Assembly (NCBI GenBank): GCA_009929315.1
Contig: SAAS01000009.1
Location: forward strand, 95-64,094
Direction: 5' to 3'
DNA: 64,000 nucleotides
Source: Clostridia bacterium
GTDB lineage: Bacteria > Bacillota > Clostridia > Oscillospirales > Oscillospiraceae
The notes under the pieces were generated by a model. The model worked only from the letters and a program-made list of their open reading frames with translations. It was not told where the DNA came from and made no database searches. Shown piece by piece: positions 8,928 through 44,584 of this stretch. The translations under genes were made by a program, and so were the position numbers. Numbering within the stretch: the stretch's first letter is position 1; the number at the start of each line of letters is the position of its first letter.

Positions 8928-8998
8928 GGTATCACCTCTTAGTAAAAATGCGGCCTTCCTGACTTGGAGCTGATTCCATTACAGGACGGCCGCGATAT

Positions 8999-10051
8999 TC
9001 ATTGTAAAGTTATTGACTTGCGCGCGTCCGATTCAAACATTCGGGTCAGAATAGCGGCAACTTCGCTTCTTTTAATGTTGTTATTCGGGTAAAAAGTCCC
9101 GTAAGCGTCCGAGCCTGTCAGGATTCCGGCTCGATAAAAGGTATAAACCTGGGTCGCGTTTGTCGCCGTAATCTTAAGGTCAGGAATCTTATTGTCGTTA
9201 ACGGTGTTCTTCTGCGTATATTCGGAGCTGGGCAGAGCCGCGTAGAAGATCGCAACAAATTCGCTTCTGGAGATTTTTAGGTCGTAATTGGAATAGGTTT
9301 TTGTAACAATGCTGTTCGCGGTTGCGTAATCAAGATATGATTTGTACCAGAGAGTTGCATCATTTGTCAAGCTCACGCTTCCGCTTTGGTAAAGCTGGTG
9401 CATACAGGCCGCGAGTTTAATCGCTTCAGCAATTGAGAGATAATCATCGGGCGCGTATATCGCCGCGCTTCTTCCGTTAATCAAACCTTTTTGCACGGCA
9501 TAGCAGACATCGCTGTAAAACCACTTGTCCTCAGTCACGTCAGAAAAAGTCGGAGCCGTGCCGCCCGAAACAGTTACACTGCCGAAGACCGAGATTTTGG
9601 CGGCTGTAACCACTGAGACGGCAGCGCTCGTTGCTTCCGCCGCAAGATAGCGATGCCCCGCGGTAAGCGTTGCGCCCAGGGCCACAACGGTGCCGTCCGT
9701 AAGGTCAAGAACCGTCCCGGAATTTGAAACGAGCTTAACCGAGCCGAACATTAGCACAAACCCTGAGCCCGCGGAAAGAGAGATTGCGCCGCCCGGCATA
9801 GCCGTTACGGAGCTGACGCCGCTGCCTTTGGTTTGAGCCGCCTGACTGAGCTTATATTTAAGTGCAGTCATTGAGTCGGTAAGCGCTTGGAGCGGGTCGG
9901 TCAGCACAAGACCCGGATAGGTATTATCAATATAACTTTTTGAAATCAGCGGGTCATCGGCGCCTCCTGCGGAAGCCGCAAAAGCCGACGAGGACGAAAG
10001 AAATATAAAAAGAAATGACAGAAAGAACGATATTAAGCGTTTTTTAGTCAC
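8999..10051 (-). CDS. secreted S-layer-homology (SLH) domain protein
   Basis: Signal peptide KKRLISFFLSFLFIFLSSSSAFA and C-terminal SLH-like repeats (FSDV..WFYSDV.Y....GL.NG). Start set to the GTG at 10051 behind GGAGG. The ORF-track start is a TTG at 10063. Confidence 0.7.
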   Translation of the reverse strand: MTKKRLISFFLSFLFIFLSSSSAFAASAGGADDPLISKSYIDNTYPGLVLTDPLQALTDSMTALKYKLSQAAQTKGSGVSSVTAMPGGAISLSAGSGFVLMFGSVKLVSNSGTVLDLTDGTVVALGATLTAGHRYLAAEATSAAVSVVTAAKISVFGSVTVSGGTAPTFSDVTEDKWFYSDVCYAVQKGLINGRSAAIYAPDDYLSIAEAIKLAACMHQLYQSGSVSLTNDATLWYKSYLDYATANSIVTKTYSNYDLKISRSEFVAIFYAALPSSEYTQKNTVNDNKIPDLKITATNATQVYTFYRAGILTGSDAYGTFYPNNNIKRSEVAAILTRMFESDARKSITLQ

Positions 10052-15316: not shown

Positions 15317-15393
15317 GGCCCAGTAGTTCAGTTGGTTAGAACGCCAGCCTGTCACGCTGGAGGTCGACGGTTCGAGCCCGTTCTGGGTCGCCA
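15317..15393 (+). tRNA. tRNA-Asp (anticodon GTC)
   Basis: Hand-folded cloverleaf: acceptor GGCCCAG/CTGGGTC, anticodon arm CCAGC-CTGTCAC-GCTGG, T-arm GACGG-TTCGAGC-CCGTT, encoded CCA. Confidence 0.9.
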
Positions 15394-15398
15394 TATAT

Positions 15399-15474
15399 GC
15401 ATCTATAGCTCAGTCGGCAGAGCGCGTCCTTGGTAAGGACGAGGTCTCCAGTTCGAATCTGGATAGATGCTCCA
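15399..15474 (+). tRNA. tRNA-Thr (anticodon GGT)
   Basis: Acceptor GCATCTA/TAGATGC, anticodon arm CGTCC-TTGGTAA-GGACG, T-loop TTCGAAT, encoded CCA. Confidence 0.9.
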
Positions 15475-30532: not shown

Positions 30533-30781
30533 AGAAAGTCCTCCTGTAAATATTATTGTGTTTCTCGGCTATTAAATGCAGGGGGTGGTTTATAAAACCT
30601 TAAAATATATAATAGCAAAATTTTGTCTTACTGTCATTCATAATTTAACAAAATCTTGTATTTTTTTTGGATCGAAATCAGTCGCAAGCTCAGAAGTTTG
30701 CGTTATCGCCCGCAATTTGAAAATTATGTGGAAACGGAAGCCGAAAAATGCTATAATCCAAAAATGACGGGAGCTGACAAA

Positions 30782-31291
30782 ATGAAAAACATAACACTTA
30801 TCGGAATGCCTGCAAGCGGGAAAAGTACAGTCGGCGTTATTCTGGCAAAGCTCATCGGCTACAATTTTCTGGATACGGATATACTTCTGGCGCTTAAGCA
30901 AGGCCGACCCCTTTCAGAGATAATTACGCAGGACGGGTACGATAAATTCATAGAATTTGAAGGTCTGGTCGGCAAAAGCATTAAAACAGATAAAACTGTT
31001 ATAGCTACGGGCGGCAGCATGGTTTTTTCCGAAAACGCGATGAAAGCCTTATCGAAGGACGGAACCCTTGTTTGGCTTGATGTGCCCGTTTCCGAGCTTG
31101 AAAAACGTCTTGTCGGAACGCTCTTAGAAAGGGGCGTTGCAACTCCAAAAGCAATGACTCTCGCTGAGGTCTACGAAATGCGAGAGCCGCTTTACAGAAA
31201 GTACGCTGATTTTCGCCTCCCCTGCGAAGGTTCAACGGAGCTTACTGCCCGAGCCCTTCGGGATTTGCTGCAGCGCGAGAAGCTGATATAA
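30782..31291 (+). CDS. aroK: shikimate kinase
   Basis: ITLIGMPASGKSTVG Walker A and FLDTD. Start chosen at the ATG at 30782. Alternative ATG at 30764. ORF-track start at 30656. Confidence 0.85.
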   Translation: MKNITLIGMPASGKSTVGVILAKLIGYNFLDTDILLALKQGRPLSEIITQDGYDKFIEFEGLVGKSIKTDKTVIATGGSMVFSENAMKALSKDGTLVWLDVPVSELEKRLVGTLLERGVATPKAMTLAEVYEMREPLYRKYADFRLPCEGSTELTARALRDLLQREKLI

Positions 31292-31350: not shown

Positions 31351-33072
31351 TCACTCGAAAGTCCTGTTTAGCGGAAGACATACAGTGAAGGCCGTCCCCT
31401 TCTCCGCAGTGCTCTCCAAAGCGACAGTGCCGCCGAGCGTATCAACAACATGCTTTACTATGGAAAGTCCCAGTCCCGTTCCGCCGACAGCTTTGCTGCG
31501 CCCGCTGTCAACCCTGTAAAAGCGCTCAAATACGCGTCTTTGGTGCTCGGGAGGAATGGGCTCGCCGTCATTTCTGACCTTCAATACTGCCTGTCCGTCT
31601 TTCGAGGAAAGCCAAACGTCAACCGCGCCGCCGAATTTGTTGTACTTTACGGCGTTAACGATGAGATTTGAAACAAGCTCGCGAATGTCTTTTTTGTTGG
31701 CAAAAATATGCACCGGTTCGAGCTGGACGTTTATCTTTAAGCTCTCCTGCTCCGCCAAAGGCGTAAGTTCATTTATACTCTCAGTCAAAATCGTGGATAT
31801 GTCAATATCCTCGCCCTCGCCCGAAAGCTCTCCGCTTTCCATTCGGCTAATCATGATAATGTCGTTTATGAGCATATTCATTCGTTCAGACTCCATGCCG
31901 ATTCGGGTAAGAAGCTCAAGACGCTGAGTATCGGAAATCGGTAAATCTGAGCAGAGAAGTTCCGCGCTGCCCTTTATGGAGGTTATGGGCGTTTTTAGCT
32001 CGTGACTTGCGTTGGAGAAAAATTCTCTTCTGACTTTAACCGCGTTTCGGGCTTCGGTGACGTCCGACATTGTTATAATCAGCGCCGCAGAAAAGCCGCT
32101 TTCCTCACCTACGTATGTGAACACGGATTCAATAATTCTTCTGTTAAGTTCAAGGTCAAAGCTGAGCTTTTTCTTGTCGCGGATAGACTTGCCGGCGTTC
32201 TGGACAAATTCGTAATTCCTTGTGGCATACAGAATATTTTCGCCTATCGAGGCTTTGCTGCAGTTGAGGTAGACGCAGGCCGCATTATTTATCATTAGAA
32301 CATTCTGCTTTTCATCCAGCAGTAAAAAGCCTTCGCTGACATTGTCGAGAATATAGTTGAGTTTATCTTTTTCGAGCTGAATTGTTCCGATATAACCCGA
32401 AAGATGTGAGGAAAGGGAGTTGATTTTTATTGCTATGTCCTCAAGCTCGGCGTAACGGTAATCCTTGGGGTTGAGCTGCTTGCCCCCGTCCTTAACGCTG
32501 ATAAGGCTCTCGTTCATCTCAGAAATAGGAGTTATAAAGCCGCTGGAGAACTTATTTGTAAGGTAAGACGCGAGCAAAAGTGCAACAAAAATGACGAGTA
32601 TCATCGCAGGAATGATTGATTTAATACTGTCCAGAACTCCCGATACCTCTTTAGTGGCTCTGATATAATAACCCTCGGGAGTCTTTACCGCGGAATAGAC
32701 TAACTTTTTTCCAATGGTTTCACTGTTTCTTACACTCGAGCCCGAGCCTGAAACAGAAGCCTGAATAATTTCAGGCCTGTCGAGATGATTCTCCATTGTC
32801 CTGTAATCCGCCTCCGAGTCGCCCAAAATGGAGCCGTCACCCGCGATTACGGTTACTCTGACGTTTCCGATAGCGCTTGCAAAAGCCTTGGCCTGTGAGT
32901 CGGCATCCCCTTGAAAATTAAACTCCTCGGCGATTACAGATGCGTAGGAGAGCATTTCCTGCTTGGTATCATCAATAAGCTCTCTGTCAAACACAAAGGC
33001 GTTAAGCGCGCCGGATATAACAAGCGTGAGCGTAAGTATGAGGACAAAACCCAGCATCAGAGTTTTTTTCAT
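31351..33072 (-). CDS. phoR: sensor histidine kinase, PhoR-like
   Basis: Two TM segments, H-box FFSNASHELKTP, N/G boxes, and genomic context next to phoU-pst. Confidence 0.85.
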   Translation of the reverse strand: MKKTLMLGFVLILTLTLVISGALNAFVFDRELIDDTKQEMLSYASVIAEEFNFQGDADSQAKAFASAIGNVRVTVIAGDGSILGDSEADYRTMENHLDRPEIIQASVSGSGSSVRNSETIGKKLVYSAVKTPEGYYIRATKEVSGVLDSIKSIIPAMILVIFVALLLASYLTNKFSSGFITPISEMNESLISVKDGGKQLNPKDYRYAELEDIAIKINSLSSHLSGYIGTIQLEKDKLNYILDNVSEGFLLLDEKQNVLMINNAACVYLNCSKASIGENILYATRNYEFVQNAGKSIRDKKKLSFDLELNRRIIESVFTYVGEESGFSAALIITMSDVTEARNAVKVRREFFSNASHELKTPITSIKGSAELLCSDLPISDTQRLELLTRIGMESERMNMLINDIIMISRMESGELSGEGEDIDISTILTESINELTPLAEQESLKINVQLEPVHIFANKKDIRELVSNLIVNAVKYNKFGGAVDVWLSSKDGQAVLKVRNDGEPIPPEHQRRVFERFYRVDSGRSKAVGGTGLGLSIVKHVVDTLGGTVALESTAEKGTAFTVCLPLNRTFE

Positions 33073-33776
33073 TTGGTACCTCCGATGAAGCGATACCCCA
33101 CTCCCCTGACGGTCTTGATATAGCTGCTGTTCTCCGCCGTGTCGTTTAGTTTTTGCCGAAGTGTGCCGATGTGAATATCAAGCGTTCTGGTTTCACCGTA
33201 ATAATCGTCGCCCCAAATTCGGCTTATAAGCTCTTCGCGCGAAACTGCTCTGAAGCTGTTTTCCATGAGATATTTCAAAAGTTCAAACTCCTTGAAGGTG
33301 AGCGGAACGGAAACGCCAAATCTTGTAACCTCACGGATGTTGTTGTTAAGGCAAACCCCTCCGAGCTCAAGAATATTATCAGAGCTCGGAGATACATCGC
33401 TTGCGCCGCTGCGGCGAAGCTGTGCACGAACTCTGGCACAAAGCTCAAGTACGCTGAAGGGTTTGGTCATATAGTCGTCGGCTCCGGAATCAAGCCCGAT
33501 AATTTTGTCAAGCTCAGTATCCTTTGCGGTCAGCATGATAATGGGTATTTCCCGCAGTTCTTTAGAGCCTCTCATGAAGCGAGCCGCTTCAATTCCGCTC
33601 ATGCCGTCCATCATAATATCCATAATAACAACTCGCGGGGCTTCGATGCTCATGTTCTCAAGAGCAGATTTTGCATTGTCAAAGCCTAGGGTTTTATAGC
33701 CGTTGCTGGAAAGCGCGACCTCAAGCAGCATTCTTATGCTCTCATCGTCCTCAACAATTAAAATCCTCTCGTTCAT
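33069..33776 (-). CDS. phoP: OmpR-family response regulator, PhoP/PhoB-like
   Basis: Receiver domain (ILIVEDD...DIMMDGMSG) plus a winged-helix C-terminus (VRGVGYRF). 4-nt overlap with the kinase gene. Confidence 0.9.
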   Translation of the reverse strand: MNERILIVEDDESIRMLLEVALSSNGYKTLGFDNAKSALENMSIEAPRVVIMDIMMDGMSGIEAARFMRGSKELREIPIIMLTAKDTELDKIIGLDSGADDYMTKPFSVLELCARVRAQLRRSGASDVSPSSDNILELGGVCLNNNIREVTRFGVSVPLTFKEFELLKYLMENSFRAVSREELISRIWGDDYYGETRTLDIHIGTLRQKLNDTAENSSYIKTVRGVGYRFIGGTK

Positions 33777-33803
33777 TTAAAACACCTCCAAGCTGTTGTG
33801 ATT

Positions 33804-34475
33804 TTAGATGATTCGCTCGTTGTAATGTATTCCTGTGACGTAAAACTGCACCCACTCGCAAATATTCACCGCGTGGTCACCGACACGCTCAAGGTATTTG
33901 ATTATCATCAGATAGTCTATGACCGTGTCCATATCCATTTTATCTTTGTAGATGTTTGAACCCAGCTCTCCGCGGATTTTCAGGAAGTAATCGTCCACCA
34001 CATCGTCCTTGTCGATTGTCTTGAGAGCAAGCTCCAGATCGCCCTTGACATAGGCGTCGATAGCGTCAGCAACCATTTCTTTGGCGGCAACAGCCATGCT
34101 GAGAACTTTGTCCTGAAGTTCGGGAAAATTAAAACTGTCGTGATAAAGGCTTATCTGCGCGATGTCGGAAGCGGCATCGCCGATTCTTTCTATGTCGGTA
34201 ATCATCTTAATGGCTGTACTAATTTTTCTCAAGTCGCCTGCAACGGGCTGCTGCTTTAAAATGAGCTTCAAGCACATTGTTTCAATGTCGCGTTCCATTG
34301 CGTTGATATAAGCATCATCTTCTATTATCTCTTTTGAAAGCGCTTTGTCAAATGTTTTAAGAGCCTGCATGGCACGGGTCACGGCGTCGATGGCCGCTGT
34401 TCCCATTCTTATAAGTGCGGAAGACAAGTCTTTAAGCTCGTCGTCATATAGTTTTCTGGGCGGCATAATATCCAC
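33804..34475 (-). CDS. phoU: phosphate signalling complex protein PhoU
   Basis: Two PhoU repeats with the E(R/I)(I/V)GD motif (DIERIGDAA and LERVGDHAVN). Confidence 0.9.
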   Translation of the reverse strand: MDIMPPRKLYDDELKDLSSALIRMGTAAIDAVTRAMQALKTFDKALSKEIIEDDAYINAMERDIETMCLKLILKQQPVAGDLRKISTAIKMITDIERIGDAASDIAQISLYHDSFNFPELQDKVLSMAVAAKEMVADAIDAYVKGDLELALKTIDKDDVVDDYFLKIRGELGSNIYKDKMDMDTVIDYLMIIKYLERVGDHAVNICEWVQFYVTGIHYNERII

Positions 34476-34486
34476 TTTCCTTTCTT

Positions 34487-35248
34487 TTAACCGAAACGAC
34501 CGGTGATGTAGTCCTCTGTGCGCTTGTCCTTGGGGATTGCAAAGATGTCATCGGTGTTGCCCATTTCAACGAGCTCACCGACTAGGAAAAATGCGGTTTT
34601 GTCTGAAATTCGCGCCGCCTGCTGCATGTTGTGAGTGACGATTACAACGGTATAGCTGCGTCTGAGATCGTCCATAAGCTCCTCTATTCGCATTGTACTG
34701 GCGGGGTCAAGGGCACTCGTCGGCTCGTCCATGAGGAGTATTTCCGGCTCAACGCTCAGCGCGCGGGCGATGCAAAGCCTTTGCTGCTGTCCGCCGGAAA
34801 GTCCCAGAGCGCTTTTTTTAAGTCTGTCCTTAACCTCGTCCCAGAGCGCCGCACCACGGAGTGACTTTTCTACAGTCTCCTCCAAAACCGCCTTGCTGCG
34901 CTCGCCGTGGAGGCGCGGACCGTAAGCAATGTTGTCGTATATACTCATGGGGAAAGGGTTTGGCGCCTGAAAGACCATTCCGATTTGCTTGCGAAGAAGA
35001 TTTACGTTCGTGTCCTTCGCGTAAATGTCGGTATCGCGGTATCTGACATCCCCAGTTATGAGCACGTCGGGGACAAGGTCGTTCATTCGGTTGAGGGTTT
35101 TAAGAAAAGTACTTTTTCCGCAGCCCGATGGTCCGATTAACGCCGTTATCTGCTTTTCTTCTATGTCCATATCAATACCCTTGAGTGCATGAAAAGCTCC
35201 GTAGTACAGCTCAAGGTTTCTTGACGAAATAATATTCAAATCTATCAC
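34487..35248 (-). CDS. pstB: phosphate ABC transporter ATP-binding protein PstB
   Basis: [22 protein letters not shown], and the PstB-typical N-terminus. Confidence 0.95.
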
Positions 35249-36129
35249 CCGACCTTTTTCAATCTTTTTTTGGCGGCCTTTGTTGCAAAGTTCAGCATCA
35301 GCACTAAAATCATTAGGATAGACGCAATTGCAAAACCGACCTCAAATTCGCCATTTTCCATGACGTAAACGTAAAGCATAACGCTGAGAGTTCCGCCGCT
35401 TGTTCCGAGCGCCCTTAGGTAATTCGTCACAAGCACATAACCTGCGCCGGCTGTGAAAAGAAGTGCTGCCGACTCGCCCACAATTCGCCCGATAGCAAGA
35501 ATCGCTCCGCTTACTATGCCGTCTATCGTGCAGGGCAAAACAATTGTTCGGATTGTATACCACTTAGTTGCGCCGAGTGCCGCCGCACCGTCACGGTAGG
35601 ACTGGGGTGTGGTTTTAAGCGATTCCTGCGTGGTTCTGATTATGCTCGGTAAAATCATTATTACCAAAGTTAAGGAGCCTGCCAGTATGCTGGATTTTAG
35701 CCCGAGCTTCTGGCAGAAAAACAGCATCCCGACAAGTCCGTATATAATGGAGGGGATAGCGGTCAGCGTTTCTGTTGAGAACTCTATGAAACGGACGAGT
35801 CCCCTTTTTGTTGCGTACTCGTTTAAGTAAATTGCCGAGCCGATACCGATGGGCAGGGCTATGACAAGTGCCGTAATTATTGTGTAAAGCGTAAATATGA
35901 TGTTCGGCAGTATGCCGATTTTATCCTCAAGAACCTTGCGCGCCGTGGAGAGGAACTCCCAGCTTACGTGGGGAAGACCCTTGACGAAAATATAGCCGAT
36001 AAGACAGACCAAAAGAAGAATTGTTATTATCGCCGAAAGGTATATTAAAACTTTAATTATCGTATCATTGATTCGCCGTTTTGCGGAAATTTTTTGATTA
36101 AGCGTAGGGAGCGCATTACTAGTTTGCAT
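35245..36129 (-). CDS. pstA: phosphate ABC transporter permease PstA
   Basis: 6-TM permease with the EAA-like loop (ESL...P......AAALGATKW). Confidence 0.9.
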
Positions 36130-36991
36130 TTTTGCTTCCTCCCTTCAGCAGAGTGTTAAGCACAACATTTATTATCATAATGAAAACGAATAGCACAAGT
36201 CCAATCGAAAACAGAGCCTGCTTTTGAAGACCCGAGGCGTAAGACATTTCCGAGGAAATCGCCGTTGTCAAAAGCCGTACGCTGCCGAAAAGTTTCGGCA
36301 TATTTGCTACGTTTCCGGCGACCATCATAACCGCCATTGCCTCCCCTATCGCCCTGCCTATTCCGAGAACGATGCCGGCTGTGATTCCGCTTTTTGCGGA
36401 AGGAATGCTCACCTTGAAAATTGTTTCGATTTTTGTGGCGCCGAGGGCAAGGCTTGCCTCCTCATATTTCTTCGGAACGGCGTTGAGGGCGTTTTCACTC
36501 ACGCTTACTATGCTCGGAAGTATCATTATAGCAAGTACCACAATCGCCGCAAATAGAGTTGAGCCGCTTTTAACTCCGAATACATCCATAATAAGCGGTA
36601 CGAGAACAATCATGCCGACAAGACCGTAAACGACGGAAGGTATTCCGGCGAGAAGTTCAACAGCCGGGCGAACAGCAGAAGCGAGCTTGGGGCTTGCGAT
36701 TTTTGACAGGAACACGGACATTAAAAGCCCAATTGGGACGCCGATAAGTATTGCCCCGAAGGTTGCGCATATTGACGATAAAATAAAGGGCAAAATACCG
36801 AACAGGGGCTCTGAAGCCGTGCTTTTCCAGACCTGACCGAAAAGGAAGTCAATTAGACCGATTTCCTTGATCGCGGGCAGACCGCTAATTATCATATAGG
36901 CAGAAATTCCGACAACCGCGATAATGGATATCATTCCGCAGACGACGAAAACAGCATTCATGACTTTTTCTGTTAGGTTTCTTGCTTTCAT
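36119..36991 (-). CDS. pstC: phosphate ABC transporter permease PstC
   Basis: Permease with the EASLALGATK loop and its position in the pst operon. Confidence 0.9.
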   Translation of the reverse strand: MKARNLTEKVMNAVFVVCGMISIIAVVGISAYMIISGLPAIKEIGLIDFLFGQVWKSTASEPLFGILPFILSSICATFGAILIGVPIGLLMSVFLSKIASPKLASAVRPAVELLAGIPSVVYGLVGMIVLVPLIMDVFGVKSGSTLFAAIVVLAIMILPSIVSVSENALNAVPKKYEEASLALGATKIETIFKVSIPSAKSGITAGIVLGIGRAIGEAMAVMMVAGNVANMPKLFGSVRLLTTAISSEMSYASGLQKQALFSIGLVLFVFIMIINVVLNTLLKGGSKNAN

Positions 36992-37078
36992 TTGGACCTC
37001 CGCTAATAATAAGCTTAATCGGCATAATTGTCTGTAAGGGGACTTCTTTAGTGAAGTCCCCTTTTTGCTGTGTCTTAA

Positions 37079-37939
37079 CTATTTTGCCTGAATTGCTCCG
37101 GCCTTTTCAATGATTGCGCCGGCTTCGTCACTCAGTGCGAATTCCATGAAAGCCTTGGCTGTTGCTGAGAGCTCCACGCCCTGCTTTGTAATCATGTTGA
37201 AATTTCTCTGAATCGCGTAAGTTCCGTCAAGTACCGTTGCTTCTGTGCATGCAACTCCGCCGACCTTGACTGCGCTTACTGTATCGCCTACCGCTGAGAG
37301 AGAAGCATAGCCGATAGCGTTTTCATTTGCCGCGACCGCTGCGATAACTGCGCCGGTGGAGGTAAGTTCCTGCTCATACTTGCAGTTGTCGGCTACCTTA
37401 ACGATGCTTTCAAAGCCATCGCGTGTACCGCTGCCCGCTTCGCGTCCGATGAACACTACCGGAGCATCGGCTCCGCCGACTTCCTTCCAGTTGGTGATTT
37501 CGCCTGTTGCGAGCTTTCCAATCTGCTCAAGAGTGAGGTCGGCGACTGTGTTTGATTTGTTAACGATAATCGCGATTCCGTCGATTGCAACAACAACCGC
37601 GTCAAGTCCGGTTTCTTCTGTCTTGAGGTTGCGGCTGGCAAGTCCGATATCAGCGGTGCCTTCGGTTGCCGCGGTTATTCCTGCGCCTGAACCCGTTGCA
37701 TCGTAAGTAACTACAACATCGGGATATTTTGCCATAAATGCTTCGCTGAGAGCAGCGATTACTTTTTCCATCGAGGTTGAGCCGTTTGTCGAGACTGTTC
37801 CGGAAAGAGCTTCTGCTGTGGGCTGGGTGGAGGCATCATCCGCCGCTGAGGGGGAAACTTCGGTTGTCGTAGAGCCGCAGCCTGCAAAAAGCGCGGCGCA
37901 CATTATAACTGCAAGTGTAATTGAAAGAATCTTTTTCAT
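37079..37939 (-). CDS. pstS: phosphate-binding lipoprotein PstS
   Basis: Lipobox LFAGC after MKKILSITLAVIMCAA, and GSGTG/SGT phosphate-binding motifs. Start at the ATG at 37939 behind GGAGA. The ORF-track start at 38095 is a TTG with an implausible leader peptide. Confidence 0.9.
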   Translation of the reverse strand: MKKILSITLAVIMCAALFAGCGSTTTEVSPSAADDASTQPTAEALSGTVSTNGSTSMEKVIAALSEAFMAKYPDVVVTYDATGSGAGITAATEGTADIGLASRNLKTEETGLDAVVVAIDGIAIIVNKSNTVADLTLEQIGKLATGEITNWKEVGGADAPVVFIGREAGSGTRDGFESIVKVADNCKYEQELTSTGAVIAAVAANENAIGYASLSAVGDTVSAVKVGGVACTEATVLDGTYAIQRNFNMITKQGVELSATAKAFMEFALSDEAGAIIEKAGAIQAK

Positions 37940-38034
37940 GAATTTTCTCCTTAAATACATATTTCTTACGTTTCTGTTATTAACGGTACTGTAATCATAA
38001 TAATTTAGAGCACTATGTACCACTACCATGTTTG

Positions 38035-38070
38035 TTTCAAAAGTTCGTAAAGAAAATGTAAAGTTGTAAA
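38035..38070 (-). promoter_or_regulatory. candidate Pho box (PhoP binding repeats) upstream of pstS
   Basis: The minus strand reads TTTACA-ac-TTTACA-ttttc-TTTACG-aactt-TTGAAA. The last three hexamers are spaced 11 bp apart, as in Bacillus TT(A/T)ACA Pho boxes, about 100-130 nt upstream of the pstS start. Confidence 0.5.
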
Positions 38071-38331
38071 GCTCAAAGAAGAAGTGCTTAATCAAAAACG
38101 CTTATGTTAAGATGCACAATATATAACCAAATAATTATATAATATGATTAACCGTTACTCATGTTATAATATCGTTATTATTTTCGGAGCGCGCAGAAAA
38201 ATAAAAAATGAGCTTTTACGACATTTTATATAGCCTGCGAAGCTTAATTGTGTTAAAATAAAACATGTTTTTATCAGCTGAGTATATTTTAGAAATATAC
38301 ATTTGATTATCTAAAGACATCGGAGGTTGAC

Positions 38332-39270
38332 ATGGATATTCGTGATTTGCGGTATTTCTGCTTAACCGCAGAGCTGGAGCACGTTTCAAAAGCCGCAGAG
38401 AAGCTTGGGATAGCACAGCCCTATCTTACAAAAATTGTCGGGCAGTTGGAAAACGAATTTGGTGCCGAGCTTTTTGACAAAGTCGGCAGAAAAATTAAGC
38501 TCAACAACTACGGTGAGGTATTTTACCGCAACGCAAAAAGAATACTTGCCGATGTTGACAAACTATATACGGAAATGGATTTTGTTCAGGAAAAGAACTC
38601 CAGAACCATTTCCCTTATGTGTAACACTGAAGCCCATGCGCATGGTATGATCGTCGAGTTCCAGAAGAAAAACGCGAATTATGCCCTTAAGTTTGCTCAT
38701 GCCACAAAGAAGGAAATGGTTGAGGCATTGAGAACGGGTGATGCTGATTTTGCTCTGTGTGATCCCGCAATTGACGATGACCCCATAAGAAATATTGTTA
38801 CCGAGCTTGTCTTTCTTGATACCGCGTGTCTTCTGCTTCCGCCGGGCCATCCGATGCTCAGCAGAAAATCAATCAGATTTGAAGATATGCAGGGAGAGCG
38901 CCTAGTTGCTCCGCCAAAAGGCGGCGCGATGCGCAATCATATCGATTTTGCTTTTGAAAAATATTCGGTAAGACCTAATATAGTTTGTGAAACACACGAC
39001 TTGAATCTGATAATTCAGGCTGTTTCCAGCGGCTTGGGTTCGGCCTTTATGTCCTATTCCGTACTTGAAAAATATCCGGAGCTTGTGCCGTTCTGTATTG
39101 AAGTGGACAGTCCCGATAAATATGGCAACATGGGGCTGAGCTATAACAGTTTGGCGCTTGAAAACAGGAATATGCAGGATTTTCTCAGCTTCTGCCGAGC
39201 TTACTTCAAAGTGCTGCAGGGAAAGATTGATTTGAGAACTGCAATGAACGCCGAAAAACTTAAGAAGTAG
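38332..39270 (+). CDS. LysR family transcriptional regulator (paralog 1)
   Basis: N-terminal HTH MDIRDLRYFCLTAELEHVSKAAEKLGIAQPYLTK and a LysR substrate-binding domain. SD GGAGG. Confidence 0.85.
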   Translation: MDIRDLRYFCLTAELEHVSKAAEKLGIAQPYLTKIVGQLENEFGAELFDKVGRKIKLNNYGEVFYRNAKRILADVDKLYTEMDFVQEKNSRTISLMCNTEAHAHGMIVEFQKKNANYALKFAHATKKEMVEALRTGDADFALCDPAIDDDPIRNIVTELVFLDTACLLLPPGHPMLSRKSIRFEDMQGERLVAPPKGGAMRNHIDFAFEKYSVRPNIVCETHDLNLIIQAVSSGLGSAFMSYSVLEKYPELVPFCIEVDSPDKYGNMGLSYNSLALENRNMQDFLSFCRAYFKVLQGKIDLRTAMNAEKLKK

Positions 39271-39327
39271 GATTTCTTCTCAACATTTGGTTTGTATCAA
39301 AAAATTATCTGCCCAAGCGGAGGTTAT

Positions 39328-40236
39328 ATGGATATAAGAGATTTGCGCTTCTTCTGCTTAACTGCCGAAATGGAGCACGTTACAAGGGCGGCAGAAAAGC
39401 TTAAAGTTTCACAGCCGTTTTTAACAAGAGTTATAAGCAACCTTGAAAGGGAAATCGGGCTGTCTCTGTTTGACAATGTCGGACGCAAAATTCGTCTTAA
39501 CGACAACGGCGAGGCCTTTTACATTAAGGCAAAAAAAGTACTGTCCGAGATGGATGAGCTTAATCTTGAAGTCGGCAGGATGCTCGACAGATACAACAGA
39601 AGCATAAGAATCCTGTGCAACATGAGCTCCTACTCCCCCGAGCTTATTGTAGCTTTCAGAAAAAAATGTCCGAACTACACGATTTCAATCGAATACGCGC
39701 CGACAAAGGACATTATAAACGCCATAACGGTTGGCGACGCGGATTTGGCGTTTTGCACGCCGCCATTAATCGACGACCCGCTTAAAGGGCTTAAAACTGA
39801 CCTGGTTTTCTGTGAACACTGCAGTATTCTTCTCCCGCCCGGTCATGAGCTGATAGGAAAAGACGAAATCACCTTTGATGATATTAAAGACGAACAGCTT
39901 ATTACTTCGCCCAAGGGCACCGGACTTCGGATAAATCTCGACAGAGTGTTTGCTTCACATGGCTTTCATCCGAATATCGTCTGCGAATCAAACGATATGG
40001 ATTTAATATTCAGAAGCGTCAGGGACGGGATGGGATATGCTATTATACCGCGCTGGCAGGTTTACAGCAAGCCGGAGATTAGAAGCTGCAGCGTGAACGT
40101 CAATATACCGGAAGCTTGCGCTTACATCGGAATCAGTTATAACACCAACCCCGCGATCAGCGCCGCCTGTGTTGATTTTAAGAATTTCGCCGTGAAGTTT
40201 TTAAACGGCGTCAAGAAAAACATATACGACAAATAG
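39328..40236 (+). CDS. LysR family transcriptional regulator (paralog 2)
   Basis: MDIRDLRFFCLTAEMEHVTRAAEKLKVSQPFLTR. Start at the ATG at 39328 behind GGAGG. The ORF-track start at 39292 adds 12 residues with no SD. Confidence 0.85.
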   Translation: MDIRDLRFFCLTAEMEHVTRAAEKLKVSQPFLTRVISNLEREIGLSLFDNVGRKIRLNDNGEAFYIKAKKVLSEMDELNLEVGRMLDRYNRSIRILCNMSSYSPELIVAFRKKCPNYTISIEYAPTKDIINAITVGDADLAFCTPPLIDDPLKGLKTDLVFCEHCSILLPPGHELIGKDEITFDDIKDEQLITSPKGTGLRINLDRVFASHGFHPNIVCESNDMDLIFRSVRDGMGYAIIPRWQVYSKPEIRSCSVNVNIPEACAYIGISYNTNPAISAACVDFKNFAVKFLNGVKKNIYDK

Positions 40237-40329: not shown

Positions 40330-40358
40330 TTGACATATTTTTGCCCATATACTATTAT
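40330..40358 (+). promoter_or_regulatory. sigma-A-type promoter of the T-box leader
   Basis: TTGACA at 40330-40335, 17-nt spacer, TATTAT at 40353-40358. Confidence 0.65.
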
Positions 40359-40377
40359 TACCTTAATTTAATACATA

Positions 40378-40666
40378 AAAGCGATGATAAGGAACAAGTA
40401 ACCGACTTAAGACCCAAACAGAAAGCTGCCGGCGTGATGAGAGGCGCATGGGAAACTTCGGCGAATACATCCTTTAGCCTTGCACCGAAAGAATGTTTTA
40501 GTAGGCTGTGACGTTTGACATACGTTATTGTGTCGGCTCTTTGCACGGCGCACAGTTGTCGCGATGGAAGAGAGCTGATAAGGCGGTATGCGTGAGCAAA
40601 CCGCGAACCAAGGTGGTACCGCGAAAAAGTTTTCGCCCTTCGGATTTTCCGAAGGGCGTTTTATTA
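40378..40666 (+). promoter_or_regulatory. T-box riboswitch leader, specifier read as UAC (Tyr)
   Basis: The Stem I base is AGCGAUGAUAAGGA. The specifier loop has the AGUA S-turn on its 5' side and GAA-UAC-A on its 3' side (UAC at 40466-40468), closed by AAGGA/UCCUU. The T-box sequence AACCAAGGUGGUACCGCG lies at 40606-40623. The terminator CGCCCUUCGG/CCGAAGGGCG at 40634-40658 is followed by a U-run. Confidence 0.85.
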
Positions 40667-40685
40667 TTATAAAGGAGTGGTTTGT

Positions 40686-42335
40686 ATGCCAATTACAGAT
40701 TTCTTGGAGAGAAACTCAAAGCTGTACCCAAGCGAGATTGCCCTCGTTGAGCTTAACCCTGAGCACGAAAATTCCACGCCCGTAAGTTCTTGGAAGGAAT
40801 TTGCGCTCGTTGATATAAACTATGAGGAAAACACATATCGCCGCGAAATCAGCTGGAAGGATTTTGACATCCGCGCAAATCGATTTGCCCATCTTTTGCT
40901 TGCAAACGGGGTTAAAAAGGGCGACAAGGTCGGTATTCTCATGATGAACTGCCTTGAGTGGCTGCCGATTTATTTCGGAATCCTAAAAGCGGGCGTCCTC
41001 GCCGTGCCGCTAAACTACCGCTACACGGCGGAGGAAATCAAATACTGCCTCGACTTGGCGGACTGCTCTCTGCTTGTTTTCGGTAATGAGTTTATTGACC
41101 GTCTTATAGAAATTAAGGACAGCATACCGAAAATTAAAAAACTCTATTATGTCGGAGCCGAATGTCCCGAGTGGGCGGAGAGTTACTATTCCTTTATGTC
41201 CTACTGTTCCAGCCGCAAGCCCAGAATCGAGATTACGGACGATGACTATGCCGCGATTTACTTTTCCTCGGGAACAACAGGATTTCCGAAGGCGATTCTT
41301 CACAAGCACCGCAGCCTGACTCATGCGGCGCTCTGTGAACAAAATCATCACGGACAGCAGCGCGGCGACTGCTTCCTCTGCATGCCTCCTCTCTACCATA
41401 CAGGCGCGAAAATGCACTGGTTCGGCAGCTTGGTCTCGGCAAGCAAGGGAGTTCTCCTGCGCGGTATCAGCCCCGAGTGGATACTGAAAACAGCGGCATC
41501 CGAGAAGGCGACAAATGTATGGCTGCTTGTTCCCTGGGCTCAGGATATCCTTGACGCGCTTGACAGAGGCGATTTAAAACTCTCGGACTATGATTTATCC
41601 GCTTGGCGTTTGATGCACATCGGCGCACAACCCGTGCCGCCGTCGCTCATAAACCGTTGGAGAGCATATTTCCCGAATCATCAGTATGATACAAACTACG
41701 GCCTTTCGGAATCCATAGGTCCCGGCTGCGTGCATCTCGGTGTTGAGAACACTCATAAGGTCGGCGCAATCGGCGTAGCCGGCTTTGGCTGGGAAACCAA
41801 GGTGGTTGACACCGAAAAGAAGGAGCTTCCGCAGGGCGAAGTCGGTGAGCTTGCCGTTCGGGGGCCGGGGGTTATGACCTGCTACTACAAAAACGAGGAG
41901 GCAACCCGCGAATCTCTCTCCGACGACGGCTGGCTATGGACGGGAGATATGGCTCGCATCGATGAGGACGGTTTTATTTGGCTTGTTGACCGCAAAAAAG
42001 ACGTTATTATAATGGGCGGAGAAAACATCTATCCCGTGCAAATTGAGGATTATCTGCGTAAAAACGAAAAGATAAAGGATGTTGCCGTTATCGGAAGACC
42101 CCATCCGCGTCTTGGCGAAATTGCCTGCGCAATTATTGAGCTTAAACCGGATACTGCGGCGACAGAGAATGAAATAAACGAGTTTTGCGCCGCGCTTCCG
42201 CGCTATAAGCGCCCACGCGAGATTATATTTGACAAGATTCCCCGCAATCCGACGGGAAAAATCGAAAAACCTGTGCTTCGCAGGAAGTACGGAAGTCTTG
42301 ACATCGTTTCCCTTCAAACCGGAACCGGAAAATAA
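40686..42335 (+). CDS. ANL-superfamily acyl/aryl-CoA ligase (AMP-forming)
   Basis: Adenylate-forming motifs YFSSGTTGFPKA, YGLSE, TGD, DRKKD and PTGKIEK. Start at the ATG at 40686, 8 nt after AAAGGAG. Confidence 0.85.
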   Translation: MPITDFLERNSKLYPSEIALVELNPEHENSTPVSSWKEFALVDINYEENTYRREISWKDFDIRANRFAHLLLANGVKKGDKVGILMMNCLEWLPIYFGILKAGVLAVPLNYRYTAEEIKYCLDLADCSLLVFGNEFIDRLIEIKDSIPKIKKLYYVGAECPEWAESYYSFMSYCSSRKPRIEITDDDYAAIYFSSGTTGFPKAILHKHRSLTHAALCEQNHHGQQRGDCFLCMPPLYHTGAKMHWFGSLVSASKGVLLRGISPEWILKTAASEKATNVWLLVPWAQDILDALDRGDLKLSDYDLSAWRLMHIGAQPVPPSLINRWRAYFPNHQYDTNYGLSESIGPGCVHLGVENTHKVGAIGVAGFGWETKVVDTEKKELPQGEVGELAVRGPGVMTCYYKNEEATRESLSDDGWLWTGDMARIDEDGFIWLVDRKKDVIIMGGENIYPVQIEDYLRKNEKIKDVAVIGRPHPRLGEIACAIIELKPDTAATENEINEFCAALPRYKRPREIIFDKIPRNPTGKIEKPVLRRKYGSLDIVSLQTGTGK

Positions 42336-42336
42336 T

Positions 42337-42370
42337 AAAACCGCAGACCTGAAATGGTCTGCGGTTTTTC
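42337..42370. terminator. bidirectional terminator between the convergent ligase and EamA genes
   Basis: AAAACCGCAGACC-tgaaat-GGTCTGCGGTTTT with A and T runs on both sides. Confidence 0.8.
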
Positions 42371-42374
42371 TTAT

Positions 42375-43277
42375 TTAACACTTATCATACTTGCGGTCAG
42401 CCGCGCTTTTATCTCGCTTAAAACTGCCAAGCTCATTCAAAACGGTAAAACCGATTATCATAATCCCACCGAATAACTGCCAAATTGTGAAGGCTTCGTT
42501 AAGCAGGGCAACGGAAACAATTGCCGCAACAAAGGGGTCAATATAACCCAGAATCGCAACCTTCTGCCCTGTCATATTTTCTATCACCGAAAAATATAGG
42601 CAATAGGTAAAGCCCGTATGTACCAAGCCTAAAATTGCAAGGTTGATAAGTCCCTTTGAGCTCAGCTCGGCAACATGGAAACCTGATGTAAAGGAAACAT
42701 ATACTGCCAGAACGAGCGCGGCGGCGGCAAACTGAAAGATGGTCTTATCAATGCCGCTTATCGACTTTACCTGCTTGTTGACGATTACAACAAAGGCATA
42801 GCAAAACGCGGACAAAAGAGCAAAAATAATACCTTTAAGCTCGCCCTCGCTGCCGTAAAGCTTAGCGCCGATCGTAAGAACAAGACCCAGACTTGCCATC
42901 AAAAAGTACAGCCATTGTTTTAAAGAAATCTTCTCTTTAAAGACCAGCGGAGCAAATACCATCAAAAGTGTGGGGCTGAAATAGCTGCACATGGTTGCCA
43001 TTGAAACGCTGGTATAATCAAAGGAGCCGAAAAACAGTATCCAGGCGCCCGCTATAGCAAGTCCTGATATCGAAAGCAGGAACAGGTCGCCCTTTGCCTT
43101 ACGAAACGGAAGGTGTTCATGCCGAATCAGCTTGAATGTTAGAATCGCAATTAAAGCAATTACGACACGCCAGAAGGCAATTTCCCCGGGTGATACGGCA
43201 ATATTTTTTACAAAAATGCTGATTGTGCCGTATATCACCATTGAGGCAATATAGCCTAGCAGACTTTTACTGACCAA
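42375..43277 (-). CDS. EamA/DMT family transporter
   Basis: 10-TM protein with two EamA-like halves. Start tentatively at the TTG at 43277, 9 nt after GGAGGA. The ORF-track start is a GTG at 43304. Either choice overlaps the ilvE 3' end. Confidence 0.75.
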   Translation of the reverse strand: MVSKSLLGYIASMVIYGTISIFVKNIAVSPGEIAFWRVVIALIAILTFKLIRHEHLPFRKAKGDLFLLSISGLAIAGAWILFFGSFDYTSVSMATMCSYFSPTLLMVFAPLVFKEKISLKQWLYFLMASLGLVLTIGAKLYGSEGELKGIIFALLSAFCYAFVVIVNKQVKSISGIDKTIFQFAAAALVLAVYVSFTSGFHVAELSSKGLINLAILGLVHTGFTYCLYFSVIENMTGQKVAILGYIDPFVAAIVSVALLNEAFTIWQLFGGIMIIGFTVLNELGSFKRDKSAADRKYDKC

Positions 43278-44389
43278 GAGAATTTGTCCTCCGTTTTCCC
43301 CCACTGGATGTCCGTGATGGTGTCATAGAGCCTCTGAGTGAGAGAACCGATTTTGCCTCCGCTGATTTTATGGCTTATTCCGTCAAAGGAAACCTCGCCT
43401 ATGGGCGATATTACTGCCGCGGTGCCTGTTCCCCATGCCTCTTCAAGCGTTCCGTCCTCGGCGGCCTTAACAAGCTCGTCAACCGTTATTTCGCGCTCAT
43501 CCACTTCAAAGCCCCAGCTGTTTATAAGCTCAATGCAGGATTTACGCGTGATGCCGGGCAAAACGCTGCCTGTGAGAGCCGGTGTGACGATTCTGCCGTT
43601 AATTTTGAACATAACATTCATACTGCCGACTTCTTCAATATTGCGGCGAGTCACACCGTCCAGCCAAAGCACCTGACTGAAGCCCTGCTCCTCCGCCCTC
43701 TTACCGGCGCGGATGGAAGCGCCGTAGTTGCCGCCGCACTTAACATAGCCCGTACCGCCGCGAACCGCGCGTACATCGCTGTTTTCAATCATAATGCGGA
43801 TAGGCGCAAGACCCTCGGGGTAATAGCTTCCGACAGGAGAGGTAATAATCGCAAACAGATAGCTGTGCGACGCGTGAACTCCGAGCTGACCCGAGGTCGC
43901 TATTATAAACGGACGAATATATAAAGAGGTGTCGGGAGCGCTCGGCACCCAGTCCTTGTCAAGCTCTAAGAGCGACTTTAACCCGTCCATAAATATTTCT
44001 TCCGGAACGGGAGGAATACAGATACGCTCAGCTGAACTGTTTAGACGTCTTGCATTTTCCGTAGGGCGGAAAAGCAGAACCTCGCCTTTCGGGCCGCGGT
44101 AAGCCTTCATGCCCTCGAAGATTTCCTGTGCATAGTGAAGAACGACAGCCGCCGGAGAAAGCTGAAAGTCCGCAAACGGAACGACACGGGGGTCGTGCCA
44201 GCCCTTACCTTCATCATAGTCCAGCAAAAACATGTGGTCGGAAAAATACTTGCCGAAAGGGATTCCTTCAATCGGCGGCTTTTCCTTCAATACTGCGGAT
44301 TTTTCTATCCTGATCTTCTCCACTGCAGTCACACTCACTTTCAGTTTATTTGTCGTCGGGTTTTTGTAATTAATTATTGATTTTATCAT
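43256..44389 (-). CDS. ilvE: branched-chain amino acid aminotransferase (class IV)
   Basis: FGKYFSDHMF, YIRP and GG.GY.KCGGNY motifs. The start is uncertain: ATG at 44389 is chosen, the ORF-track start is a TTG at 44413, and no clear SD precedes either. Confidence 0.88.
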   Translation of the reverse strand: MIKSIINYKNPTTNKLKVSVTAVEKIRIEKSAVLKEKPPIEGIPFGKYFSDHMFLLDYDEGKGWHDPRVVPFADFQLSPAAVVLHYAQEIFEGMKAYRGPKGEVLLFRPTENARRLNSSAERICIPPVPEEIFMDGLKSLLELDKDWVPSAPDTSLYIRPFIIATSGQLGVHASHSYLFAIITSPVGSYYPEGLAPIRIMIENSDVRAVRGGTGYVKCGGNYGASIRAGKRAEEQGFSQVLWLDGVTRRNIEEVGSMNVMFKINGRIVTPALTGSVLPGITRKSCIELINSWGFEVDEREITVDELVKAAEDGTLEEAWGTGTAAVISPIGEVSFDGISHKISGGKIGSLTQRLYDTITDIQWGKTEDKFSWSVKVC

Positions 44390-44584
44390 TCCTGTACTGT
44401 TTTTCAAGGGCAAACGGAAATTATTTGAAAATTTTGTAACTTACGTTGTTTTACGCTTTAACTCGATAAGTTATTTTTAGATTTATGTGCAAACCGCCAA
44501 TGTTAAATATTGTTAATCAACAGTGATTATAGTATAATCAGCGCAACTGAATTAACAGCGCTTGCACTTGTAAGGAGAAATACT

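Follow-up and report, generated by a model that had tools for sequence, protein, structure and literature searches.

Uncharged tRNA-Tyr turns on tyrS in Bacillus subtilis, and the tyrS leader is the founding T-box. For the rumen, reductive carboxylation of phenylacetate was reportedly described by Allison in 1965. According to Porat et al. (2004), as cited in PMC4162585, aryl acids feed aromatic amino acid synthesis in Methanococcus maripaludis through indolepyruvate:ferredoxin oxidoreductase (IOR). In Bacteroides, an AMP-forming ligase encoded next to IOR was assayed as an arylacetate-coenzyme A (CoA) ligase, and a biosynthetic role was proposed (PMC13285125). Here we describe a locus of a Clostridia bacterium of the Oscillospiraceae (assembly GCA_009929315.1, contig SAAS01000009.1, positions 95 to 64,094 of the forward strand) in which a T-box leader stands before a gene for an acyl/aryl-CoA ligase. 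All positions given for this locus are those of the 64,000-nucleotide (nt) stretch, which is called the window below. An earlier note, made from the letters of the window, had claimed that all canonical T-box elements are present, with an overlapping terminator that has its U-run directly before the ribosome-binding site and the start codon at 40686. Each of these elements was located, and the leader is almost certainly a functional, canonical T-box riboswitch of the transcription-attenuation type for tRNA-Tyr. It quite probably gates a ligase for arylacetates, such as 4-hydroxyphenylacetate, that feeds reductive carboxylation by IOR. The features of the transcription unit are the following:

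40330-40358, plus strand: sigma-70-type promoter with -35 TTGACA (40330-40335), a 17-nt spacer and -10 TATTAT (40353-40358)
40375-40665, plus strand: complete T-box leader of the transcription-attenuation type, matched by RF00230 and by a leader profile
40381-40478, plus strand: Stem I with basal GC/GC pairs and GA (K-turn-like) motif, specifier loop, AG bulge and distal loop
40397-40400, plus strand: AGUA S-turn on the 5' side of the specifier loop, invariant in 27 of 27 aligned leaders and identical to the Rfam consensus AGUA
40420-40425, plus strand: AG bulge AGAAAG within Stem I
40431-40442, plus strand: distal loop within Stem I
40463-40469, plus strand: 3' side of the specifier loop, GAA-UAC-A, with UAC (Tyr) at 40466-40468 by covariance-model alignment
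40535-40576, plus strand: extra hairpin of ~40 nt between the Stem IIA/B region and Stem III, an insertion in the RF00230 alignment
40610-40623, plus strand: T-box sequence AAGGUGGUACCGCG by RF00230 alignment
40610-40640, plus strand: T-box sequence and antiterminator, with AAGG/CCUU and GCGAA/UUCGC helices flanking the 7-nt bulge UGGUACC (40614-40620)
40634-40662, plus strand: intrinsic terminator, an 11-bp stem (40634-40658) with 8 G-C pairs followed by UUUU
40672-40677, plus strand: Shine-Dalgarno sequence AAGGAG, 8 nt 5' of the ATG, read from the sequence
40686, plus strand: ATG start codon of the ligase gene
40686-42335, plus strand: gene for a 549-aa acyl/aryl-CoA ligase of the ANL superfamily (Pfam AMP-binding and AMP-binding_C)
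42337-42368, plus strand: bidirectional intrinsic terminator with a 13-bp stem and T-runs on both strands

The promoter matches 11 of the 12 consensus positions, and a promoter-like TTGACA is also present in two close relatives (loci L081 and L083). A covariance search with RF00230, which the earlier note had proposed as a check, aligned the model end to end (model positions 1-219) with positions 40375-40643 of the plus strand at 91.1 bits. The E value was 1.1e-20 in a local search and 1.5e-18 when both strands of the entire window were searched. At the E-value threshold, this leader was the sole T-box returned by the RF00230 search within the 64 kb. The Rfam gathering score for RF00230 is 93 and the leader stays 1.9 bits short of it; a default gathering-threshold Rfam scan of the window reported two tRNAs only and not the T-box leader. 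Standard automated annotation would therefore miss this T-box. The shortfall is explained by the inserted hairpin, which is specific to the lineage, by the divergent AG bulge and distal loop, and by a few non-consensus pairs in the upper part of Stem I in the RF00230 alignment. With an nhmmer profile made from 30 related leaders, the window leader reaches 153.7 bits.

At its base, Stem I has GC/GC pairs with a UGA...AG (GA-type) motif. The truncated antiterminator segment folds at -8.7 kcal/mol with the 7-nt bulge UGGUACC, and the terminator region at -22.9 kcal/mol. The strand 40634-40640 belongs to the antiterminator as its 3' strand and to the terminator as its 5' arm, so that only one of the two structures can form at a time. 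Within the bulge, UGGU (40614-40617) is predicted to pair with the ACCA 3' end of the tRNA. The same architecture recurs in related leaders: 13 of them exceed the Rfam gathering score (99.8-132.9 bits), folding of the truncated segment gives the bulged antiterminator as the structure of lowest free energy for most of them, and nearly all of those folded have, in their minimum-free-energy structure, a hairpin and U-run in the terminator position that overlap the antiterminator.

It might be argued that the leader is a decayed T-box that does not switch, or that its specifier has been mis-read and is AUA (Ile) or AAU (Asn) in the same loop. We regard this as highly improbable, even though the score below the gathering threshold counts for it and so does the divergence of the platform elements. 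The latter are correctly placed and read AGAAAG and GGCGUGAUGAGA in the window, compared to the family-typical AGAGAG and GGU.UGGUGCGAG in an alignment of 27 leaders; the distal loop has UGAUG where most relatives have UGGUG. However, the five relatives with 84-87% ligase identity that represent the window's lineage (L001 and L081-L084) have kept both variants, and their terminator and antiterminator are intact. The two platform changes co-occur, and they could be a compensating tertiary pair. The same five relatives conserve the extra hairpin, and other leaders have a shorter or different one.

The second part of this objection concerns the specifier, which the earlier note had read as GAA-UAC-A, with UAC at 40466-40468 and with closure by AAGGA and UCCUU. 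This reading agrees with the RF00230 alignment, with covariation and with three control T-boxes. AAGGA (40389-40393) pairs with UCCUU (40470-40474) to close the loop, and in the RF00230 alignment UAC occupies the three positions before the last unpaired loop base. For the covariation analysis, Stem I was aligned for 27 leaders linked to ligase or IOR genes, and pairs were counted for the canonical structure. Paired cells amounted to 86.4%, compared to 66.7% in shuffles and 33-42% with slid 3' partners; changes on both sides were found at 21 of the 22 pairs, and the observed values were not reached in any of 500 shuffles. Of the two helices that flank the specifier loop, the lower was 97.7% and the upper 74.7% paired, with compensatory changes at 11 of 11 pairs. 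These covarying flanking helices fix the register of the specifier loop, while GAA, the codon and AGUA stay constant. The specifier column of the 27 leaders contains UAC 23 times and UUC four times.

Applied to the control T-boxes, the same reading rule gave UUC before pheS (L043), AAC before a synthetase of the Asp/Lys/Asn class (asnS-like) followed by asnA (L044), and GUA before a class I synthetase of the Ile/Leu/Met/Val type (L072). What could be said for a mis-reading is that one base earlier the change from UAC to UUC in the Phe-specifier clade becomes a change from AUA to AUU, and both are Ile codons. Yet the geometry is canonical, with the codon followed by one base and the closing helix, and this closing helix is the one that covaries and is 97.7% paired. 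The rule was right for all three synthetase controls, and a frame shifted by one base gives the stop codon UAA for the asnS-like leader of L044; the AUA (Ile) reading was therefore rejected. A UGGU bulge implies discriminator base A in the tRNA, which is compatible with tRNA-Tyr. A gene for tRNA-Tyr was not found in the 64-kb window, where tRNA-Asp and tRNA-Thr were the only tRNA genes; these are the tandem genes tRNA-Asp(GUC) and tRNA-Thr(GGU) at 15317-15474 on the plus strand.

The terminator at 42337-42368 ends the ligase transcript, and the unit is therefore monocistronic with the ligase as its only gene. The earlier note had called the product a 549-aa adenylate-forming CoA ligase with the motifs YFSSGTTGFPKA, YGLSE and PTGKIEK, and both the Pfam matches (AMP-binding PF00501, 1.2e-71; AMP-binding_C PF13193, 1.3e-11) and the motifs bear this out. 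PTGKIEK contains the catalytic Lys, and a GDxxxxDxDGxxxxxDRxKD hinge region is also present. Both domains that define the ANL superfamily are thus found in the protein, along with a P-loop-like motif, a YGxTE-type motif and the C-terminal Lys. None of the NCBIfam models was matched at its cut-off; the best one was PRK06187 / NF004837 (long-chain-fatty-acid--CoA ligase) with 404.2 bits compared to a cut-off of 476. Models for PaaK, the phenylacetate-CoA ligase type (TIGR02155), were absent from the 25 best NCBIfam matches listed, and the C-terminal domain is PF13193 and not the PaaK-type PF14535 (AMP-binding_C_2). An assignment of the window ligase as PaaK was ruled out by its length of 549 aa and by PF13193; the PaaK-like genes of related operons are separate open reading frames.

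Among solved structures, FadD5 and FadD13 come closest, ahead of malonyl-CoA synthetase, feruloyl- and 4-coumarate ligases and luciferases; all have 22-27% identity. An AlphaFold2 model (pLDDT 77.7) matched FadD13 in Foldseek with a TM score of 0.71, which supports the fold only; an N-terminal insertion at about residues 31-46 was modeled with low confidence. The metagenome protein matches form a large and tight family with 68-88% identity, and the public names of close homologs are generic ("class I adenylate-forming enzyme family protein", "acyl-CoA ligase"). An amino-acid-adenylating role, as in nonribosomal peptide synthetases or DltA-like proteins, was ruled out by the matches and structures of acyl/aryl-CoA and related acid-activating families and by the IOR context described below. 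Judged from its sequence, the ligase belongs to a branch of the ANL superfamily that resembles FadD and 4-coumarate:CoA ligase (4CL) and lacks a characterized close relative, and a large unannotated family gains a functional lead.

This lead came from the orthologs, for which a survey of T-boxes and specifiers had been proposed in the earlier note. We examined the best 80 of at least 597 stretches that encode relatives of the ligase in GTDB species-representative genomes. These 80 loci are from different species, have 65-87% ligase identity and belong nearly all to gut or rumen Oscillospirales genomes assembled from metagenomes. Iterated nhmmer searches detected 29 T-boxes in them; a plain pattern search for the T-box sequence undercounted, and many T-boxes were located 1.6-2.7 kb upstream, before a gene for a sodium:solute symporter (SSF). 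In 25 of the 80 loci a T-box on the same strand was found upstream of the ligase gene or its operon, in 16 cases directly before the ligase and in nine before an SSF-ligase pair. The specifier was UAC (Tyr) in 22 of these loci and UUC (Phe) in three (L057, L062, L070), which form one clade in the ligase tree and of which two are named Faecousia. None of the 25 T-box loci among the 80 had a non-aromatic specifier before this ligase family.

A large clade of ~30 orthologs (L028-L040 in the tree; L066, L068, L075) has no T-box within 4 kb, and in some of its members iorA-iorB-paaK is located divergently upstream of the ligase gene, which implies a different mode of regulation.

The gene neighbors of the ligase were identified by tblastn of seed proteins over the 80 loci and by family searches. 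IorA and IorB adjoin the ligase in 33 loci, an SSF gene accompanies it in 31, and a PaaK-like gene in 12. IOR or SSF is present in 21 of the 25 T-box loci. The identity of the IOR subunits was confirmed for L029, where IorA passes TIGR03336 (725.9 compared to a cut-off of 650.9) and IorB passes NF005325 (292.6 compared to 230). Four operons illustrate the arrangements:

L029: T-box(Tyr) > SSF > Amidohydro_2 > ligase > IorA > IorB > PaaK-like
L019: T-box > SSF > ligase > IorA > IorB
L007: T-box > ligase > IorA > IorB > PaaK-like
L055: T-box > SSF > ligase > EamA

A class I/II aminotransferase is encoded directly after IorB in L023 (7963-9126) and L025 (8064-9233), both loci without a detectable T-box; by its predicted function it completes the gene set leading from arylacetate to amino acid. 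About two-thirds of the IOR-linked loci have the window-type ligase as the only CoA ligase of the cluster. In L048, which has two T-boxes (3707-3967 and 5727-5989), the one with a Tyr specifier (UAC) precedes the ligase and the one with a Phe specifier (UUC) precedes IorA-IorB-PaaK-like, a possible sign that each of the two ligase types supplies a different amino acid. The grouping of ligase, IorAB, importer and aminotransferase is seen across the ortholog family and not in the window itself, in whose 64 kb IOR and SSF are absent.

Two further observations concern individual orthologs. An open reading frame of L053 (3435-4097) follows and overlaps the ligase gene with the Tyr T-box and has a weak match to 4'-phosphopantetheinyl transferase (3.4e-9); it could hint at a carrier-protein acceptor instead of CoA in that species. 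L004 encodes a second, distant ANL paralog (8019-9551, minus strand; 29% identity to the window ligase), which is convergent after IorB.

The anatomy of the T-box, its specifier, its conservation and its gene linkage are direct results. Binding of tRNA-Tyr and tRNA-dependent readthrough would follow from established T-box biology. Transcription would start from the promoter at 40330-40358, and Stem I would offer UAC (40466-40468) to the GUA anticodon of tRNA-Tyr. If this tRNA is uncharged, its free ACCA end would pair with UGGU (40614-40617) and stabilize the weak antiterminator, which would block the strong terminator at 40634-40662 so that the ligase gene is transcribed. Charged tRNA-Tyr would be unable to pair, and transcription would end before the ligase gene. 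The ligase would then form the CoA thioester of a scavenged or imported arylacetate, chiefly 4-hydroxyphenylacetate or, in the Phe clade, phenylacetate. IorAB would carboxylate the arylacetyl-CoA reductively to the arylpyruvate (4-hydroxyphenylpyruvate), and an aminotransferase would convert 4-hydroxyphenylpyruvate to tyrosine. The switch would thus induce a tyrosine salvage when tyrosine is short, as a supplement to the de novo route. With respect to the latter, the window contains a shikimate kinase gene (30656-31291, plus strand; Pfam SKI, 4.6e-27), which suggests a de novo aromatic pathway and hence a ligase route that is a salvage supplement and not the sole source of tyrosine.

That the T-box-controlled ligase feeds the tyrosine supply had been claimed before the orthologs were known, and their operons with SSF, IorA/IorB and aminotransferase, together with exclusively aromatic specifiers, speak strongly for it; the ligase very probably serves aromatic amino acid supply. 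Two alternatives would remove this role: the operon could be catabolic, with IOR oxidizing tyrosine-derived arylpyruvates and the ligase and transporter handling the products, or the protein could be an ordinary fatty-acid CoA ligase with an incidental T-box. Amino-acid fermenters do use IOR oxidatively (PMC13285125), and the best NCBIfam and PDB matches of the ligase are named fatty-acyl-CoA ligases. However, genes behind a T-box are expressed while the tRNA lacks its amino acid, and this is the wrong cue for a pathway that degrades the amino acid in question. AMP-forming ligases favor thioester synthesis and, according to the authors of PMC13285125, the biosynthetic direction. As for fatty acids, the T-boxes before this ligase family have, over many species, no specifiers other than Tyr and Phe, and the PRK06187 score is under its cut-off. 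Taken together, these two alternatives are very unlikely.

The earlier suggestion that an aryl acid is activated for reductive carboxylation and transamination is supported by the orders ligase > IorA > IorB > aminotransferase and T-box(Tyr) > SSF > ligase > IorA > IorB. Ligase substrate and flux direction are here inferred from gene linkage and the known chemistry of IOR, and the substrate is probably an arylacetate feeding IOR. Several findings weigh against this scheme. A PaaK-like ligase is present in many IOR clusters too, and enzymes of the PaaK type can make 4-hydroxyphenylacetyl-CoA from 4-hydroxyphenylacetate (PMC13285125); therefore the extra ligase might act on a different aromatic acid. 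The window ligase has at most 27% identity to any solved structure, and its best matches are fatty-acyl, malonyl, coumarate and luciferin enzymes; with such generic ANL neighbors, neither sequence nor fold gives an inference on the substrate. An Amidohydro_2 gene (PF04909), which is located between SSF and ligase in L029 (3184-3999) and L049 (3202-3993) and divergently in L070 (2766-3560, minus strand), has no role in a simple arylacetate scheme, and its products matched none of the NCBIfam models. About two-thirds of the ortholog loci had no T-box within 4 kb in the iterated nhmmer searches; relaxed nhmmer searches gave no additional T-boxes, and an Rfam gathering scan of 15 nhmmer-negative loci gave neither a T-box nor another riboswitch. 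These orthologs are under some other regulation. Finally, no homolog of IorA, IorB, SSF or PaaK was found within the 64-kb window, and the ligase is monocistronic in the window's lineage. The pathway partners are elsewhere in the genome or absent, which is the main gap in the argument.

These findings leave room for a variant in which the Tyr sensor works and the ligase serves tyrosine, and in which the substrate is another aromatic acid or precursor and the PaaK-like enzyme is the true arylacetate activator for IOR. Candidate substrates are 3-(4-hydroxyphenyl)propionate, 4-coumarate, 4-hydroxyphenyllactate or a conjugate first processed by the Amidohydro_2 enzyme. The presence of the PaaK-like gene in the same cluster as the window-type ligase in 12 loci fits this variant, as do the Amidohydro_2 genes of L029 and L049 and the coumarate and feruloyl ligases among the nearest structures. 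However, IOR needs arylacetyl-CoA, and genes of the beta-oxidation type or dehydratase genes for acids with a C3 side chain were not seen in the operons. Moreover, most IOR-linked loci lack a PaaK-like gene, which leaves the window-type ligase as the sole activator. We therefore consider a different aromatic substrate unlikely, although it is the alternative to be taken most seriously, and retain an arylacetate as the probable substrate.

The closest relatives of the window are L001 (87% ligase identity) and the contigs carrying P0004 (87%) and P0009 (84%). The local gene order of the window is retained there, with a pst-phoU cluster, one or two LysR genes, T-box, ligase, sometimes EamA, and a convergent ilvE. 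Their leader is also the same as that of the window, and it shares GAAUACA, the added hairpin and the variants of AG bulge and distal loop. Directly upstream of the T-box promoter, the window has tandem LysR-family paralogs (38332-39270 and 39292-40236, both plus strand); two LysR genes are kept in L081 and one in L083. The pair might be a second, protein-based layer of control, or unrelated. Genes for an EamA-family transporter (42375-43304, minus strand) and an IlvE-type class IV aminotransferase (43256-44413, minus strand) converge on the ligase gene. A catalytic link of the ligase with these two genes in the window was rejected, as they are separate transcription units. In L055, an EamA homolog (5639-6520; 35% identity) follows the ligase inside the same T-box operon, and going by this arrangement the EamA transporter may be functionally linked to the ligase. 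The phosphate-uptake cluster upstream of the LysR genes (31351-38095, minus strand) is ordinary and unrelated to the T-box finding; PstS was tested directly, and histidine kinase, response regulator, PhoU and PstBAC were assigned by synteny with L081.

T-boxes report the purpose of a gene, and a Tyr or Phe specifier before a "fatty-acid" CoA ligase and iorAB assigns to aromatic amino acid supply a ligase family that is large and abundant in gut and rumen Clostridia. For gut and rumen Oscillospirales in general, we lean slightly towards a salvage gated by tRNA charging, in which tyrosine (phenylalanine in one clade) would be rebuilt from environmental arylacetates by an SSF importer, the FadD-like family as hitherto unrecognized arylacetate-CoA ligases, a reductive IOR and an aminotransferase. 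If this is true, the loci supply the missing genes for the rumen reductive carboxylation physiology of the 1960s and give a gene-level and regulatory handle on the reductive carboxylation of arylacetates, the physiology of which has been known for ~60 years. The T-box would be the first regulatory evidence for an anabolic bacterial IOR and would argue for a biosynthetic direction of IOR in Oscillospirales. Commensals would then be predicted to consume phenylacetate and 4-hydroxyphenylacetate, precursors of the host-relevant phenylacetylglutamine and p-cresol, when amino acids are scarce.

The earlier note knew of no described pairing of a T-box with a ligase of this kind, and a literature search, in which the survey of Vitreschak et al. 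(2008) was not covered, yielded no paper pairing a T-box with indolepyruvate, CoA ligase or phenylacetate. The survey of T-box-regulated genes by Wels et al. (2008) nowhere mentions CoA. As an enzyme, the window ligase shares the two-domain ANL fold and core motifs with mycobacterial FadD13 and FadD5 and with the plant 4CL enzymes; it differs from them by its low identity of 22-27%, by the N-terminal insertion and by a context of aromatic amino acid supply instead of lipid or phenylpropanoid metabolism. The Bacteroides clusters of IOR and PaaK-type genes (PMC13285125) likewise have an AMP-forming ligase beside iorAB, and PaaK-like genes occur in 12 of our loci. However, the window ligase, with 549 aa, AMP-binding_C and similarity to FadD13 and 4CL, belongs to a different ANL branch than the PaaK type with ~437 aa and AMP-binding_C_2, and no T-box was reported for the Bacteroides IOR clusters in that paper.

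The chemistry proposed here, from arylacetate via arylacetyl-CoA to the arylpyruvate by IOR and on to the amino acid by transamination, would correspond to the aryl-acid route of M. maripaludis as far as it is described in PMC4162585. That route is archaeal, and the rumen route is a physiology without assigned genes; neither is presented with riboswitch control in the sources as cited here. The Oscillospirales loci differ from both in being bacterial, in forming operons with an SSF importer and in their proposed gating by tRNA charging. With the B. subtilis tyrS leader, the window leader has in common Stem I with the GA motif, the S-turn specifier loop with UAC followed by a purine, the AG bulge and distal loop, the Stem IIA/B region, Stem III, the UGGN antiterminator bulge and the competing terminator. 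It differs from the tyrS leader by the extra hairpin of ~40 nt and the variant bases of the AG bulge and distal loop, and its regulated gene codes for a CoA ligase instead of a synthetase, an enzyme of the shikimate/prephenate route or a transporter. The RNA is thus an ordinary T-box in its anatomy and presumed mechanism, and what is new is the class of the regulated gene.

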